Positions 14,886 to 61,674 of a DNA stretch of 64,000 bases are shown one piece after another. A program made the position numbers and the translations under genes. This DNA is from an uncultured Mycoplasmatota bacterium. GTDB taxonomy: Bacteria; Bacillota_I; Bacilli_A; RF39; UBA660. The notes under the pieces were generated by a model. That model had not been told where the DNA came from, made no database searches, and worked only from the letters and a program-made list of their open reading frames with translations. Location of the stretch: assembly GCA_948434005.1 (NCBI GenBank), contig CAOJEH010000001.1, positions 219,880 through 283,879 of the forward strand, in the 5' to 3' direction. Position 1 is the stretch's first letter. Every line of letters begins with the position of its first letter.

Positions 14886-15212
14886 ATGTATCAAAATAAG
14901 ATAGAGCTTTCTCCACAAGATATTTTAGAAAAAGAATTCAAAATAGATACACGTGGATATCGCTTAAAAGAAGTAGATCAGTTTTTAGATATTATAATTA
15001 ATGACTATGAGCAATTCTATACAATGATAAACGATTTAGAGAAAGAAAAAGCAGATTTATTGGGAGAGATGATGAAGTTAAAACAGGAACTTCGTAAAGT
15101 AAAAACTAGTGCAGAGATTGCAAAAAATAATGATACTCCTGAAATTACAAATGTAGATTTATTACGTAGACTTTCAAATCTTGAAAAAATGGTATATGGA
15201 AAAGAAGATTAA
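14886..15212 (+). CDS. gpsB: Cell-cycle protein GpsB (DivIVA-domain)
   Basis: IELSPQDILEKEFKIDTRGYRLKEVDQFLDIIINDYEQ is the DivIVA N-terminal domain, with a C-terminal coiled-coil. The start was set to the ATG at 14886 (GAGGTTGGTGA RBS). Confidence 0.8.
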   Translation: MYQNKIELSPQDILEKEFKIDTRGYRLKEVDQFLDIIINDYEQFYTMINDLEKEKADLLGEMMKLKQELRKVKTSAEIAKNNDTPEITNVDLLRRLSNLEKMVYGKED

Positions 15213-15213
15213 T

Positions 15214-15560
15214 ACTTAAGACAAACGCTGTATTCTAATAGAATATTGAGGAAAGTCCATGCTCACACGTACCTGTGATGGTCGTAGTGTTCGTGCTTAG
15301 GGAAAAAATAACCTAAGGTAGAGAAATCTAACGGCAGAGCAAAGACCTAAGTCGATTGATATGGTCTTCTCTTGAAAAGTGCCGCAGTGACGATTTTTTA
15401 GGAAACTAAAAGGTGAAACGTGGTAAACCCCGCGAGTGAGAAACCCAAATTATGGTAGGGGAGCTTTGATTAGGGAATAAGAACCGAGTCAGGGACCGAG
15501 TAGTCGGTAGATAAATGTTTGTCACCTCGTTGTGAGGTACAGAACATGGCTTATTAAGTA
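15214..15560 (+). ncRNA. rnpB: RNase P RNA (bacterial type B, Firmicutes)
   Basis: Contains the universally conserved GAGGAAAGTCCATGCTC (P4 5' strand) and ACAGAACATGGCTTA (P4 3' strand) elements, plus AGGGAAA...GGTGAAACGTGGTAAACCCC motifs. The 5' and 3' ends can pair (ACTTAAG / CTTATTAAGT). It lies directly downstream of gpsB, exactly as in B. subtilis. Confidence 0.85.
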
Positions 15561-56044: not shown

Positions 56045-56635
56045 ATGAAAGAAAAAAGAAATATTATAGTATTTACTATAGCCATTGCAATTATTGCATC
56101 AATAACAGCAGTAGGAATTGCCTATGCTTCATTTTCACAAACATTAAAAATTAATGGTAATGCTACAGTAAGGACAGCAACATGGAAAGTAAAATTTTCA
56201 AATTTAACTAATGCTACATTAACAGGAACAGCACAAGAAATTACAGCACCAACAATTACTACAAATGATACTAAAATAGGGGATTATTCAGTATCTCTAA
56301 CTAAGCCTGGAGATTCTGTTAGCTATACCTTTGATGTTGTTAATGAGGGAACATTTGATGCAAAAGTTTCTAGTGTCACAATTCCTACACCAACATGCAC
56401 AGGAACAGGAGATAATGCAACAGTTGATGGTAATAATGTTTGTAATAATATTAGTTATACACTAACTTATTCAGATGGAACTAGTGTACAAGAATCAGAT
56501 ACTTTAAATAGTAATGAAACTAAAACAATGAAATTAACATTAAAATACGCTGATGGAATTACATCTGAACAACTACCAAAAAATGATGTAGCTATTAGTG
56601 GCTTAGAAACTACAATTATATATGGTCAATCATAG
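56045..56635 (+). CDS. Secreted protein with a SipW-cognate-like signal peptide (TasA/CalY-class leader), 196 aa, Thr-rich
   Basis: Leader MKEKRNIIVFTIAIAIIASITAVGIAYASFSQTLK: a basic stretch, a long hydrophobic stretch, then G-x-A-Y-A-S-F-S. Compare the TasA ...GGGTWAAFND and CalY ...GGGTFAFFSD cleavage regions. Lies immediately upstream of sipW. Confidence 0.5.
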   Translation: MKEKRNIIVFTIAIAIIASITAVGIAYASFSQTLKINGNATVRTATWKVKFSNLTNATLTGTAQEITAPTITTNDTKIGDYSVSLTKPGDSVSYTFDVVNEGTFDAKVSSVTIPTPTCTGTGDNATVDGNNVCNNISYTLTYSDGTSVQESDTLNSNETKTMKLTLKYADGITSEQLPKNDVAISGLETTIIYGQS

Positions 56636-56766
56636 TATCTAAAATATCGGATACTTATGAAAATAAAAGTGTAATGATTCTGATAACATAATAATTTGTA
56701 TGTATTAATATATGAATAGTTGCACTTTTATTTTATTTTTTAGAAAGATAAAAAGTGGGTGAATAG

Positions 56767-57906
56767 ATGAAAAAAAGTGAAATTAAATTGATATCATTAG
56801 AGATAATATCTATTTTCCTATTAATTATGAATATTTTTACAAAATACTTTATCAATCAGTATATAATAATTATTATACTTTTACTAATGTTTACTATTTC
56901 TTTATTTATTTCTAGCTTCGAAAAAGAAAAAATTTTAGATAAAAAAAGTATAATAAAAAATACGCTTATTTATACTATATCATATTTGATTTTAATATAT
57001 GGAATGGGTATATTTACAGGATATATTAAAACTTCCTATAGTTTAACCTTAGTTGGTATAATAAAGAATATTTTTCCAGTAATTATTTTAATATTAATAG
57101 AGGAATTACTTAGATATCATATTTGTAAAAAAGCAGAAAATAAAAAAATAATAATTATATTATCTATTTTATCGTTTGTACTAATTGATATATCACTTTC
57201 TATTGATTTATACAATTTTAATGATAAATCTAAAATTATAGAATTAATTACAATTACTATATTACCTAGTATATTTAAAAATATTATGTTATCATTTTTT
57301 TCCTATAAATATGGATATAAGGTATGTATAGTTTACCAGTTGATAACAAATATATATTTATATATTATGCCAATATTTCCTAATTTATCTATATATTTAG
57401 AATCTATATTAAAAATATTATTACCTATATTTGTTGGTACACTTATTTATCTTAGATTCAAGAAAATAACTATAAAAAGTTTTAGAAATAACTCTAGACT
57501 CTTAAAGATAATAACAGGTATAATTATAGTAATGACTATAATTACTATAGTTTTATATAGTAATCTATTTCCCTATACAATAGCGGTTATAGGAAGTGGT
57601 TCAATGAATCCTAATTTAAAAAGAGGAGATATGATTTTAATAGATAAAACATATCATGAAAAAACAAATAAGTTGAAAGTTGGTCAAGTATTAGTCTTTA
57701 AAATAAAAGATACTATATATACACATAGAATTGTAAAAATAGATAAAATAAATGGAAAATATTCTATTTTAACAAAAGGAGATAGAAAAGGACAAGCTAT
57801 AGATACTTGGACAGTTACAGAAGATGATATTATAGGAATAACAAAACTAAAAATTCCTATGATAGGATATCCAAGCGTTTGGTTAAAAGATATATTGGAG
57901 GGATAA
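56767..57906 (+). CDS. sipW: Archaeal/ER-type signal peptidase I (SipW family) fused to an N-terminal ~190-aa polytopic membrane domain
   Basis: The C-terminal 180 aa carry the SipW core GSGSMNPNLKRGDMILIDK...HRIV...KGD, with Ser/His catalytic residues of SPase I, S26B type. The N-terminal half has about 6 TM segments that ordinary SipW (~190 aa) does not have. Confidence 0.7.
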   Translation: MKKSEIKLISLEIISIFLLIMNIFTKYFINQYIIIIILLLMFTISLFISSFEKEKILDKKSIIKNTLIYTISYLILIYGMGIFTGYIKTSYSLTLVGIIKNIFPVIILILIEELLRYHICKKAENKKIIIILSILSFVLIDISLSIDLYNFNDKSKIIELITITILPSIFKNIMLSFFSYKYGYKVCIVYQLITNIYLYIMPIFPNLSIYLESILKILLPIFVGTLIYLRFKKITIKSFRNNSRLLKIITGIIIVMTIITIVLYSNLFPYTIAVIGSGSMNPNLKRGDMILIDKTYHEKTNKLKVGQVLVFKIKDTIYTHRIVKIDKINGKYSILTKGDRKGQAIDTWTVTEDDIIGITKLKIPMIGYPSVWLKDILEG

Positions 57907-57908
57907 AA

Positions 57909-59063
57909 ATGAGTAAAGGGAAAATACAATATCAAAGTAAAGATAAATCATATAAAGTAAAAACAGTAAATAAAAAGAAAATATTAAGAAAAGGAACAGT
58001 ATTAAAATTATTGATTATACCTTGTTTGCTAATTCTACTGTTATCATTATTACTACTTAATAGTTCTATCGAAATTAAGGGTAAATCAGCAAATGTTGGT
58101 TATAATGAAATAGGAGATGTTGATTACAAAGTATATCTAAAGGATAATAATTATTATGATTCTAAATATTTAGATAGCGGTATGCAGTATGTAGCAAGTC
58201 TAATTAGTAGTGTTAATACAAAATTTAATTATGAAGTACATTCTGAAAAAAATCTGGATTATAAATATACATATAACATTGTAGGTGATTTAGTTATATA
58301 TGATATTAATGATTCATCTAAAATATTATATACTAAACAGTATAATTTACTAGATTCTAAAACAGAAAATTTAAGTTCAAATAATATTGTTATAAATGAA
58401 GATCTAGATATTGATTATGATGAGTATAATAATTATGTTAACTCTTATAAAAGAGATTATGGTATTAGTGCTGGTAGTAAATTAATTGTAACTATGAATA
58501 TCAATGTAAACGGAAGTAATAATAAAATACAAAAAAAATTAAATCATAAGAATAAATTACAAATTGAAATACCATTATCAGAACAAACACTTAATATTAA
58601 TATTGCATCAGATAAGATAAATAATAAAGAAAGATTATTTACTTTAACTGGTCCAGTAATAACAAATAAATTCATTTTTGTTATAGGATTACTTTTACTA
58701 ATAATATCACTTATCAGTTTAATTATTTCTATATGGAAATTTACTGCTTATAAAAAGGAAAATATATATATTATAACATTAAATAAATTTTTAAGAGATT
58801 ATGATCGTTTGATAGTAAATGCAACAGATAGTATTAGTGAGAAAAAATTTGAAAGAGTAATACCGGTAAGTAGTTTTACAGAATTAGTTGATGCAGCTGA
58901 AAATAATAGAACATCCATAATATTCTTTGAAGCAATAGCAGGTGAAAAGAGTTTCTTTTTAGTAATTAATGATAAAACATTATATAAGTATAGATTAACT
59001 AAAGCTTATCTAGAAGGAAATCCTGATGCAGAAGAATTAAAAGATACAAAAGGAAAAAAATAA
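57909..59063 (+). CDS. Hypothetical bitopic membrane protein of the SipW locus (385 aa)
   Basis: Start set at MSKGKIQ (GGAGGG RBS). TM1 at ~aa 30-50, a large N/D/Y-rich extracytoplasmic domain, TM2 (FIFVIGLLLLIISLISLIISIW), then a ~120-aa cytoplasmic C-domain. Confidence 0.45.
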   Translation: MSKGKIQYQSKDKSYKVKTVNKKKILRKGTVLKLLIIPCLLILLLSLLLLNSSIEIKGKSANVGYNEIGDVDYKVYLKDNNYYDSKYLDSGMQYVASLISSVNTKFNYEVHSEKNLDYKYTYNIVGDLVIYDINDSSKILYTKQYNLLDSKTENLSSNNIVINEDLDIDYDEYNNYVNSYKRDYGISAGSKLIVTMNINVNGSNNKIQKKLNHKNKLQIEIPLSEQTLNINIASDKINNKERLFTLTGPVITNKFIFVIGLLLLIISLISLIISIWKFTAYKKENIYIITLNKFLRDYDRLIVNATDSISEKKFERVIPVSSFTELVDAAENNRTSIIFFEAIAGEKSFFLVINDKTLYKYRLTKAYLEGNPDAEELKDTKGKK

Positions 59064-59656
59064 TGAAAGTAATTGATTATATTAAAAATAGGAAATTATT
59101 ATTTTCAATACTTGGATTATTTCTTGTTATATCCTTTGTATCTATTTCCTATGCATCTATGAATACATCTATGATGATAACAGGTGATGCATATGTTAGA
59201 GTGGATGAAGAAATAAGGGTAGTTGGAATTAAATTTTTAAATGTAGAAAATGATGCTTATGAGACATATAATGCTAAGTATTCAAAGAATTCTACTAATA
59301 TGTATATAACACTGCCCAATATAAATTCTAAAATTACTTATCAAGTAGAAATAGAGAATAAATCAGATCATGTATATTTAGTTAGTGATATTATAGGAGA
59401 ACTAATTAATCCCAATATTACATATACAGTAGAAAATGGTATAGTAAAGGTAGTACCAAAGAAATCCAAGATAACATTAAATATTACTTTTCATTATAAG
59501 GATGATAATTTACCGGCTGATATTACACAAATTTCTACAATAAATTATAAATTTGAAAGGCCTACTGCATCTCATTTAGAATTTGATAATTCTAATGTAA
59601 ATACAAACTGTATAGATGTTCAATGTGCACTAGATGAATTATATGAAATATTTTAG
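59063..59656 (+). CDS. Secreted protein with a SipW-cognate-like signal peptide, 197 aa
   Basis: Leader MKVIDYIKNRKLLFSILGLFLVISFVSISYASMNTSM, hydrophobic then S-Y-A-S-M. Similar in size to the 56045 protein. Start overlaps the previous stop (TAATG). Confidence 0.45.
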   Translation: MKVIDYIKNRKLLFSILGLFLVISFVSISYASMNTSMMITGDAYVRVDEEIRVVGIKFLNVENDAYETYNAKYSKNSTNMYITLPNINSKITYQVEIENKSDHVYLVSDIIGELINPNITYTVENGIVKVVPKKSKITLNITFHYKDDNLPADITQISTINYKFERPTASHLEFDNSNVNTNCIDVQCALDELYEIF

Positions 59657-59670
59657 AAAGAGTGATAACT

Positions 59671-60627
59671 ATGCATAGAAAAAATTTTTCCTTTTTAATT
59701 ATAGGATTGACAATAGGAATGTTAATATCAGGTATAGGAGTATATGCAACAACTATTCTTTCTAGTAGTGAAGTATCCTATGATAACAGTAAATCAAATT
59801 CGTTATCTAATAATGTTCAAGGTTCAATAGAAGAATTATATAAAAAGTCAAGTAATTGTACAACAGGATCTTGTTCGCTAACACAGTCAAACTTTTATGT
59901 AGAATATACATATAATCAAACAAGTGGGGCAAGTAACTATTGTGTAACCGGAGATGAAGCAACTTGTACTAGAACAGACTGTTATACTTCATCAGCAAAA
60001 ACTTGTCCTCCAGGAACTATTATTGATTATATTGTAAGTGGAACAAATACTAGAGTAAGATTTCATGTTATAAAAGATAAAGGAAAAACTATGACAATGC
60101 AATCACAAAAAAATACAATTTATAATTTGGCATGGGATTCATCAGGCGTCAATACAAAAGGACCAACAACAATATTACCACAATTAGAAAAAGCAACTAG
60201 TAGTTGGACTAATGTAGAAGACCAAACTTATACAATGGGGGAAACAGTATTTAAAGATAATGCTTTTACGGGATGTAGTAGTTATAATTCATGTACAGAA
60301 AATAAATATACATTAGGTAGTAAAACAGTAAAAGCAAGAATGATAACAGTGCAAGAAGCAAACACTTTTGGGTGTACCACTTCTAATAGCTCTTGCCCTA
60401 TATGGATGTATAATTATACATATGGTGCTATGAGCTATGGTGGGACAGTAGATGATAATATAGAAAGAACTATGCATAATTATGGTTATTGGACAATGTC
60501 CTCATATCAATTAGATACTATACATGCATGGTATATTGCCAAAAATGGACATATATATGCTAATTATAGTACAGGAACCAATCTTCTTTTATATGGTGCA
60601 AGAGCAGTAATAGAGGTGTCTAAATAA
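59671..60627 (+). CDS. Cys-rich secreted protein, tandem paralog A (constant N-domain + variable C-domain)
   Basis: Start at MHRKNF (AGAGTGA RBS). Leader ...GIGVYATTILSSSEV. Mature region is rich in Cys, Thr, Ser and Tyr (CTTGSC, CVTGDEATCTRTDC, CPPGT...). C-terminus is GARAVIEVSK. Confidence 0.5.
   Translation: MHRKNFSFLIIGLTIGMLISGIGVYATTILSSSEVSYDNSKSNSLSNNVQGSIEELYKKSSNCTTGSCSLTQSNFYVEYTYNQTSGASNYCVTGDEATCTRTDCYTSSAKTCPPGTIIDYIVSGTNTRVRFHVIKDKGKTMTMQSQKNTIYNLAWDSSGVNTKGPTTILPQLEKATSSWTNVEDQTYTMGETVFKDNAFTGCSSYNSCTENKYTLGSKTVKARMITVQEANTFGCTTSNSSCPIWMYNYTYGAMSYGGTVDDNIERTMHNYGYWTMSSYQLDTIHAWYIAKNGHIYANYSTGTNLLLYGARAVIEVSK
59757..60072 (+). repeat. 316-bp segment 100% identical to 60822..61137 (copy 1)
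   Basis: Checked base-by-base: identical from tctttctagtagtgaag... to ...agatttcatgttata. Identity falls to ~75-80% immediately on both sides. Confidence 0.95.
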
Positions 60628-60664
60628 TTGCTAGAGTACAATGGACCTCGATCCTTTTTTTGAA

Positions 60665-60694
60665 TTGACAAAAGCCTCTGGGGGGGGGTATGAT
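60665..60694 (+). promoter_or_regulatory. Sigma-A-type promoter TTGACA-N18-TATGAT with a G9 homopolymer in the spacer (candidate phase-variation switch)
   Basis: TTGACA sits at 60665-60670 and TATGAT at 60689-60694. The spacer aaagcctctgggggggggg holds 9 consecutive G at 60680-60688. The ATG of paralog B is 33 nt downstream, after a GGAGTGG RBS. Confidence 0.5.
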
Positions 60695-60726
60695 AAAAGT
60701 ATAAAATAAAAGTGCGGAGTGGTATA

Positions 60727-61674
60727 ATGAAGAAATTTATAAAGAAAAACTACAAAATAGTAATAGCATTTATATTAGGAGGAATAGTATTTGGAGGTAT
60801 AGGAGTATATGCATCAACTAATCTTTCTAGTAGTGAAGTATCCTATGATAACAGTAAATCAAATTCGTTATCTAATAATGTTCAAGGTTCAATAGAAGAA
60901 TTATATAAAAAGTCAAGTAATTGTACAACAGGATCTTGTTCGCTAACACAGTCAAACTTTTATGTAGAATATACATATAATCAAACAAGTGGGGCAAGTA
61001 ACTATTGTGTAACCGGAGATGAAGCAACTTGTACTAGAACAGACTGTTATACTTCATCAGCAAAAACTTGTCCTCCAGGAACTATTATTGATTATATTGT
61101 AAGTGGAACAAATACTAGAGTAAGATTTCATGTTATACAGGATAAGGGAAAGACTATTACAATGCAGACACAAAAAAATATAATCAATAATATAGCTTGG
61201 TATGCGGGAGATATTAATAGTTATGGCCCTACCAAGGTACTACCAATGTTAGAAAATGCAACATCAAGTTGGAGTAATGTAAATACTCAAACCTATACTA
61301 TAGGAAATAGTTTTTTGTCAGGATGTAGTGAATATAATTCATGTACTACTAATAAATATACATTAGCCCAAAGAACAGCAAAGGCTAGACTGGCTACAGT
61401 GCAAGAATTAGCTAACGTGGGGTGTACTAGGGCTACTGGTTCTTGTCCTAAATGGGTTTACAATTATTTATATAGCTCTACCGATTTTGGAGGTTCAGTT
61501 TCTGATACTACCACAGATGGAGGAGACGGAAGATATGGTTATTGGACAATGAATGCTTATACTGGTAGTTCTGATTTTGTTTGGCATATTGGTCGGCAAG
61601 GGCGTCTTTGGTATACAATTTCTCCTACATATCCCGGTATTGGTGCTAGAGCAGTAGTAGAGGTTTCTAAATAA
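60727..61674 (+). CDS. Cys-rich secreted protein, tandem paralog B
   Basis: Start at MKKFIKK (GGAGTGG RBS). Leader ...GGIGVYASTNLSSSEV. Residues 33-137 are identical to paralog A (encoded by the identical 316 bp). The C-domain is ~55% identical and ends GARAVVEVSK. Confidence 0.5.
   Translation: MKKFIKKNYKIVIAFILGGIVFGGIGVYASTNLSSSEVSYDNSKSNSLSNNVQGSIEELYKKSSNCTTGSCSLTQSNFYVEYTYNQTSGASNYCVTGDEATCTRTDCYTSSAKTCPPGTIIDYIVSGTNTRVRFHVIQDKGKTITMQTQKNIINNIAWYAGDINSYGPTKVLPMLENATSSWSNVNTQTYTIGNSFLSGCSEYNSCTTNKYTLAQRTAKARLATVQELANVGCTRATGSCPKWVYNYLYSSTDFGGSVSDTTTDGGDGRYGYWTMNAYTGSSDFVWHIGRQGRLWYTISPTYPGIGARAVVEVSK
60822..61137 (+). repeat. 316-bp segment 100% identical to 59757..60072 (copy 2)
   Basis: Same as copy 1, at an offset of 1065 bp. 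Confidence 0.95.

Follow-up and report, generated by a model that had tools for sequence, protein, structure and literature searches.

A G9 homopolymer as a probable slippage-prone tuning element in the putative promoter of a lectin-fold paralog from uncultured gut Bacilli

Expression switches driven by repeat slippage have been documented mainly in Gram-negative pathogens, spirochaetes and mycoplasmas, and most of the phase variation known in gut commensals involves invertible promoters; to our knowledge, no slippage-driven expression switch has been described in the lineage considered here. The closest precedents are porA of Neisseria meningitidis and tp0126 of Treponema pallidum, in both of which a poly-G tract lies between the -35 and -10 elements such that tract length sets the spacing, 17 nt being optimal (PMC7864442). 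The present locus shares with both a G homopolymer in the sigma-70-type promoter spacer of a gene for a surface or secreted protein, and the tract lengths of porA and tp0126, about 8-11, cover those found here. In contrast to these systems, the tract directly abuts the -10 element, and every spacer observed exceeds the optimum. The hosts differ as well: porA and tp0126 belong to Gram-negative and spirochaete pathogens and come with mapped transcription starts and reporter data, whereas the element described here, predicted from sequence, resides in an uncultured, apparently spore-forming gut bacterium of the Bacilli with 26% G+C, in an operon that provides no terminator upstream of the gene.

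A second group of precedents comprises vlp of Mycoplasma hyorhinis, maa2 of M. arthritidis and vmm of M. mycoides, where insertions and deletions in promoter-spacer repeats turn genes of surface-protein families ON and OFF (PMC2268961). Common to these and to the present locus are a low-G+C, Firmicutes-related host and one promoter design used throughout a gene family. The mycoplasma repeats, on the other hand, are A or TA tracts in front of lipoprotein genes, whereas the present tract is poly-G, the least common type of run in an AT-rich genome, and precedes genes for lectin-fold proteins associated with a SipW operon; the comparison does not place them in one evolutionary family. A homopolymer just before a -10 element need not be a switch, as the T-tract of the vpma promoter of M. 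agalactiae was shown not to generate variation (PMC2268961); the tract reported here, likewise beside the -10, differs in length between near-identical strains, in contrast to the inert vpma tract. In the AT-rich genomes of Campylobacter jejuni and Helicobacter, finally, G/C runs of about 8-12 nt occur almost exclusively in phase-variable genes for surface structures (PMC6321876, PMC2823697). There, as here, the rarity of the tract is itself the signature, but the majority of their tracts lie within genes and work by frameshifting, whereas this one lies in a promoter.

The window, i.e. the complete 64,000-nt stretch of DNA analysed, to whose numbering all coordinates refer unless a retrieved locus (L-number) is named, holds at 56045-61674 a tightly packed cluster of plus-strand genes ending in two Cys-rich paralogs, A and B:

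56767-57906, plus strand: SipW-type signal peptidase of 379 aa that carries a long membrane domain fused at its N-terminal side
59671-60627 (stop codon ends at 60627), plus strand: paralog A, 318 aa, 65% identical to B, last upstream gene of the SipW/DUF5305 operon
60727-61674, plus strand: paralog B, 315 aa, Cys-rich, with an N-terminal signal or anchor sequence and a predicted C-type-lectin-like fold; the gene downstream of the tract

In the operon preceding the paralogs (56045-59656), the signal peptidase is accompanied by a DUF5305 protein and by two small proteins that carry TasA-like signal sequences and lack a family match; the arrangement resembles a cluster dedicated to secretion or fibre assembly. 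Neither paralog gave a significant match in sequence searches against Pfam, NCBIfam and the PDB. The AlphaFold model of B (pLDDT 84) has as its best solved structural neighbour in Foldseek a domain of the IgA peptidase of Thomasclavelia ramosa (E 2.5e-4), followed by phage Mtd, the target protein of a diversity-generating retroelement (DGR), and C-type lectins at non-significant E values of 0.2 to 9. Judged by this model, B is a secreted protein with a lectin-like fold. Its N-terminal signal or anchor sequence (MKKFIKKNYKIVIAFILGGIVFGGIGVYA/ST), the SipW-type signal peptidase and DUF5305 neighbours and the C-type-lectin-like fold all mark it as surface-exposed or secreted, as is expected for the product of a contingency locus.

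The sequence between A and B contains the following elements:

60665-60670, plus strand: -35 hexamer TTGACA, six of six positions matching the sigma-70/sigma-A consensus by direct reading and consensus scan
60671-60688, plus strand: promoter spacer AAAGCCTCTGGGGGGGGG, 18 nt in the G9 allele and 19 nt in the G10 allele
60680-60688, plus strand: G9 homopolymer, putative hypermutable element, unique in the 64 kb; G10 in four other assemblies of the same species
60689-60694, plus strand: -10 hexamer TATGAT, five of six positions, directly abutting the G tract
60701-60703, plus strand: predicted transcription start, 7-9 nt past the -10, from standard sigma-70 promoter geometry
60716-60719, plus strand: ribosome-binding site GGAG, 7 nt before the ATG of paralog B, by direct reading

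Direct reading confirmed every part of the element as given in the initial annotation: TTGACA, an 18-nt spacer ending in G9, and TATGAT. The arithmetic offered there, a 17-nt spacer with G8 and a 19-nt spacer with G10, is likewise correct, and the statement that the 64 kb contain no other G or C run of 7 or more holds even at a threshold of 6. The G9 run, which takes up the 3' half of the spacer next to the -10, is the sole G or C run of at least 6 nt in a window of 26.4% G+C; five G5 runs occur, and C runs of 5 or more are absent. From base composition about 0.002 G runs of at least 9 nt would be expected, so that the over-representation of a slippable G/C run (about 7-8 nt or more), one hallmark of contingency loci, is evident.

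The ATG of paralog B, at 60727, lies 32 nt downstream of TATGAT. In the consensus scan TTGACA-18-TATGAT scores 11 of 12, and the site is intergenic and stands before an ATG preceded by a ribosome-binding site. Matches of at least 11/12 are not rare in AT-rich DNA, 14 being observed in the window vs 10.0 ± 2.8 in Markov shuffles. Of these 14, about 10 are intergenic, correctly oriented and upstream of a gene, which argues that a strong match as well placed as this one is usually a real promoter; nine of these roughly ten strong intergenic promoter-like sites in the window have a 17-nt spacer. We infer that the TTGACA/TATGAT pair is the promoter of paralog B and in use. The chance that the only G9 run would fall wholly inside the spacer of one of the 14 sites is estimated at 14 x 10 / 64000, or about 0.002.

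Transcription of B may not depend on this promoter alone. The only terminator-like feature between A and the promoter is a remnant:

60642-60661, plus strand: vestigial terminator with a 3-bp stem (GGA..TCC) and a T7 run behind it; its fold, at -1.6 kcal/mol, does not surpass shuffles

A terminator scan between A and B found none, and the fold of the A-B intergenic region is no better than that of shuffles (z = 0.64), with no hairpin or attenuator. B is probably also transcribed by read-through from A, to judge from this layout. Switching of B ON and OFF, or tuning of B, independently of A had been proposed. The lack of an effective terminator favours tuning over strict ON/OFF control, and for the same reason the independence from A is doubtful.

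The comparison of strains bears directly on the variability of the tract. Through exact-protein look-ups the tract could be followed in nine further assemblies of the species, whose intergenic sequence is identical to that of the window except at the tract itself. G9 is found in the window, L001, L002, L015 and L025, G10 in L010, L026, L027 and L028; in L024, G10 is followed directly by ATGAT, the first T of the -10 having been lost (replaced by G). SNP haplotypes divide the strains into two groups, one of them all G9 and the other G10 except for L025, and imply at least two tract-length events. Between L025 (G9) and L028 (G10) there are 0 mismatches and 1 gap over 2304 nt. As a control, 11 A/T homopolymers of 7-9 nt located within 57-64 kb showed 0 indels in 84 observations across assemblies, while the G tract had changed in 4 of 9 observations and was the sole indel in those alignments. 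The tract thus varies faster than its surroundings among close strains, a further mark of contingency loci. Invariance of the tract across strains, named at the outset as the outcome that would speak against a switch, is not what was found, since G9 and G10 both occur on identical flanks; and the slippage reading itself gains support from the occurrence of both alleles at 0 mismatches with no other regional homopolymer varying. A G8 allele, with its 17-nt spacer, was seen in no assembly. When metagenome contigs were scanned for the exact pattern of the window's element, with the tract length left variable, there were 0 matches, the collection evidently being without these samples.

Since poly-G is a known problem motif in sequencing, one has to ask whether the tract or its length variation might stem from sequencing or assembly, i.e. 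from two-colour Illumina poly-G errors or from consensus errors at low coverage. Where coverage is recorded, the G10 alleles come from assemblies at 2-4.5x and the G9 alleles from assemblies at 6.5x and 17x, which leaves some room for a poly-G-specific error. All four low-coverage assemblies, however, agree with each other in giving exactly G10 and have one SNP haplotype in common. Moreover, the tract lies in the interior of long contigs, flanked on either side by unique sequence; at least 10 independent assemblies, made by several pipelines (SPAdes, JGI, Logan), contain it; the A9 and A8 runs are constant in length; and homologous G9 tracts occupy the matching promoter position in unrelated metagenomes. 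An artefact is, on balance, very improbable.

These homologous tracts emerged from 24 metagenome loci, 103 kb in total, that were fetched by means of a family alignment. Only four G/C runs of at least 7 nt occur in those 103 kb, all of them G on the sense strand and upstream of a family gene. Three of the four (L033, L037, L038) share the layout of the window, as does L057, which was found separately via another family protein in an NCBI MAG named 'Bacilli bacterium'; together with the window these loci are referred to as class I. The four homologues, from other gut metagenomes, encode proteins with 38-46% identity to B. TTGnnn comes first in the layout, then a pyrimidine-rich stretch, exactly G9, 0-2 nt and a perfect TATAAT; the leader that follows measures about 32-35 nt, contains a Shine-Dalgarno (SD) sequence and ends at the ATG. 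In each of the five class I loci the first G of the run lies 47-52 nt upstream of the start codon. Apart from these elements the surrounding DNA cannot be aligned, which argues that a pure G run beside the -10 is maintained by selection. In L057, L037 and L033 the promoter is preceded by a genuine terminator hairpin (-9 to -13.8 kcal/mol), and the genes there accordingly form independent transcription units. The recurrence of G9 abutting TATAAT at a matching distance from the ATG in four distant homologues supplies independent comparative support for the predicted promoter.

Two other interpretations of the -10 region were considered. A sigma-B-type -10, for which the consensus is GGGTAT, could be formed from the end of the run and the following TAT in the window; L033 (G9-AG-TATAAT) and L038 (G9-T-TATAAT) cannot form it. 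An extended -10 (TGn) is not conserved among class I loci. Against Rfam, neither the tract of L001 nor the G-tract elements of L004-L006 had a match (E up to 1), and scans of the element and related elements returned nothing but unrelated T-box and RNase P hits.

The -35 region is less uniform. The -35-like hexamers of the homologous loci read TTGCAA or TTGATT, and their distance from the -10 at G9, 18 nt in the window, is 19 nt in L037, L038 and L057 and 21 nt in L033. All observed alleles thus have spacers of 18-21 nt, above the 17-nt optimum, and the distance to the -35 is not conserved, which suggests that more than simple -35/-10 spacing may be at work. Three explanations of the supra-optimal spacers are possible: the consensus state in gut samples may be low or OFF, the -35 may not be the partner that counts, or tract length may act otherwise, e.g. 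through the rigidity of the spacer or a regulator.

A competing proposal is that the run is a fixed functional promoter element, a regulator site or a rigid G-rich spacer in which about 9 G are kept by selection, with G9/G10 being a neutral polymorphism among strains. The presence of exactly G9 in five unrelated class I loci fits such an element, and the unconserved distance to the -35-like hexamer (18-21 nt) would be odd if spacing were the controlled variable. It can be added that tracts of this kind can be inert, as the vpma precedent teaches (PMC2268961). The tract is also invariant in L057 (G9 in four assemblies) and in L061 (G12 in three), which is weak evidence because the assemblies compared are 99.98-100% identical to each other. 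A regulator site, however, should tolerate G-to-A interruptions, whereas the class I tracts are all pure. Neutral polymorphism is likewise hard to reconcile with a tract that is the sole indel among near-identical strains while 11 A/T homopolymers remain unchanged, and with G9 and G10 at zero SNP distance, for which at least two events are needed. Conservation of a modal length, for its part, does not discriminate, since accepted contingency loci conserve theirs too; the poly-G tracts of Campylobacter are a case in point. A fixed element is thus considered unlikely, though it is the most serious of the competing explanations.

It can be rationalized, taking these findings together, that G9 is a slippage-driven variable promoter element that tunes the expression of B, and this explanation as a whole is held to be probable, with appreciable room for doubt. 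On this account the core promoter of paralog B would contain a simple-sequence repeat prone to slippage, the G9 run, such that gain or loss of a G during replication would alter both the distance and the rotational phasing between -35 and -10, the spacer measuring 17 nt with G8, 18 nt with G9 and 19 nt with G10. Cells of a single population would then differ, heritably but reversibly, in promoter strength and hence in how much of the secreted C-type-lectin-fold protein B they make, and the tract would add a variable level of B on top of the read-through from the SipW operon. Tract length would alter transcription, and switching would presumably be frequent and reversible. How tract length acts is less certain than the initial annotation implied, because G8 was not seen and the homologues have their -35 at 19-21 nt.

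A different route by which the tract might act is translation. According to this alternative the G run lies within a small upstream ORF (sORF), and its length shifts the frame of a leader peptide, altering translation or attenuation before B. The candidate in the window is:

60641-60709, plus strand: candidate sORF MDLDPFFELTKASGGGYDKSIK with G9, ending ...SGGGV with G10; ATG at 60641, the G run encoding Gly-Gly-Gly

It would parallel a second class of poly-G elements (class II), which precede family genes in other MAGs and have their G run within a small ORF:

L004:3218-3365, other MAG: class II element
L004:8732-8870, other MAG: class II element
L005:3569-3680, other MAG: class II element
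L006:2539-2680, other MAG: class II element
L008:923-1045, other MAG: class II element
L039:2035-2170, other MAG: class II element
L045:1691-1812, other MAG: class II element
L061:2885-2962, other MAG: class II element of a different form

The class II tract is G10-G12, or has decayed to G6 or to GGGGAGGGGG. The sORF has a strong SD (AAGGTAGGTG..ATG) and ends in ..P(R/K)LT(R/K)GGG plus 1-4 residues; it is followed by the conserved TTTAAAGTA, a terminator-like hairpin and the family gene. In every copy the -1 frame is open through hairpin and T-run, and in L004 it ends in an ATGA overlap with the start codon of the family gene. The class II elements may thus represent, as far as their reading frames tell, a phase-variable leader peptide or a frame-dependent attenuator: one tract length would stop the ribosome before the hairpin, and another would keep the frame open through hairpin and T-run. 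In this respect they may stand closer to the intragenic type of Campylobacter and Helicobacter.

For the window, the sORF draws some credit from these elements: strong-SD sORFs of the other MAGs end in ..LT(R/K)GGG.. across the G run, the interruption in L008 (GGGGAGGGGG) is synonymous, L061 has AGGAGG-ATG..SNGGGGY across G12, and the window peptide contains the similar LTKASGGGY. The likeness of 'DPFF' and 'GGGY', however, stems from the T-run of the terminator and from GGG plus the TAT of the -10, and the proposal that the window element is homologous to the class II sORF elements was rejected, since the alignment gives no support and the common 'GGGY' and 'FF' come from promoter and terminator DNA. 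Furthermore, there is no convincing SD before the ATG at 60641 (GCTAGAGTACAATG), no hairpin or terminator follows (z = 0.64), no frame reaches the start codon of B, and the class I loci L037 and L057 are without an ATG-initiated ORF through the tract. The combination of an sORF preceded by a ribosome-binding site with a terminator or antiterminator structure, which identifies a leader-peptide attenuator, was found only in the class II elements of other MAGs, and is absent from the window. The window sORF at 60641-60709 is probably spurious, and action of the tract through it is improbable, to be ranked well below a fixed promoter element.

One may go further and combine both classes into a family-wide poly-G 'phasome' of uncultured gut Bacilli that would control a large family of secreted C-type-lectin-fold proteins, by a promoter G9 in class I and by a phase-variable translational attenuator in class II, the latter design being previously undescribed. 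This broader scheme is speculative and, at present, doubtful. The element is not universal in the family, as the G run is absent in the close relatives L011, L012 and L029-L032. L011 (SRR16913077), an orthologous locus with 87% identity, is without an intact paralog A and without the G-tract element.

As to the slippage-tuned promoter of B itself, the mechanism is well known from porA, tp0126 and vlp, and what is new is probably its occurrence in uncultured gut Bacilli and in a new gene family with a C-type-lectin fold. If correct, it would extend contingency-locus biology to uncultured gut Bacilli and would single out the lectin-fold proteins as probably facing the host, phages or immunity; as a simple marker, G runs, rare as they are in AT-rich MAGs, would furthermore allow such genes to be found directly in metagenomes.

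With regard to the host, the only Rfam match in the window is an RNase P RNA of class B at 15212-15558 (279 bits), which is consistent with a Firmicutes/Bacilli origin; homologues stem from MAGs labelled uncultured Bacilli, and sporulation-type genes just downstream of the window indicate an apparently spore-forming organism.

Several rearrangements were noted around the paralogs. One strain, L024 (JGI 3300006155), has A, the intergenic region and the G tract as in the window, but what comes next (L024:1560-2766, the counterpart of the window from about 60705) is another gene, encoding a family-like protein of 386 aa, and then one for a LysM protein. The breakpoint lies about 10 nt past the -10; either a cassette-like replacement downstream of the promoter or a chimeric contig would account for this arrangement. 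In L011:2428-3000, paralog A has shrunk to an ORF of 130 aa with in-frame stops, the intergenic promoter and the G tract are absent, and B follows directly. Within the window, the 5' parts of A and B (59715-60126 vs 60780-61191; about 300-400 nt) are 97% identical as DNA and the 3' parts have diverged, a pattern which suggests recent gene conversion between the 5' parts. Many public assemblies break inside this A/B repeat, the contigs L016-L022 all ending within B.
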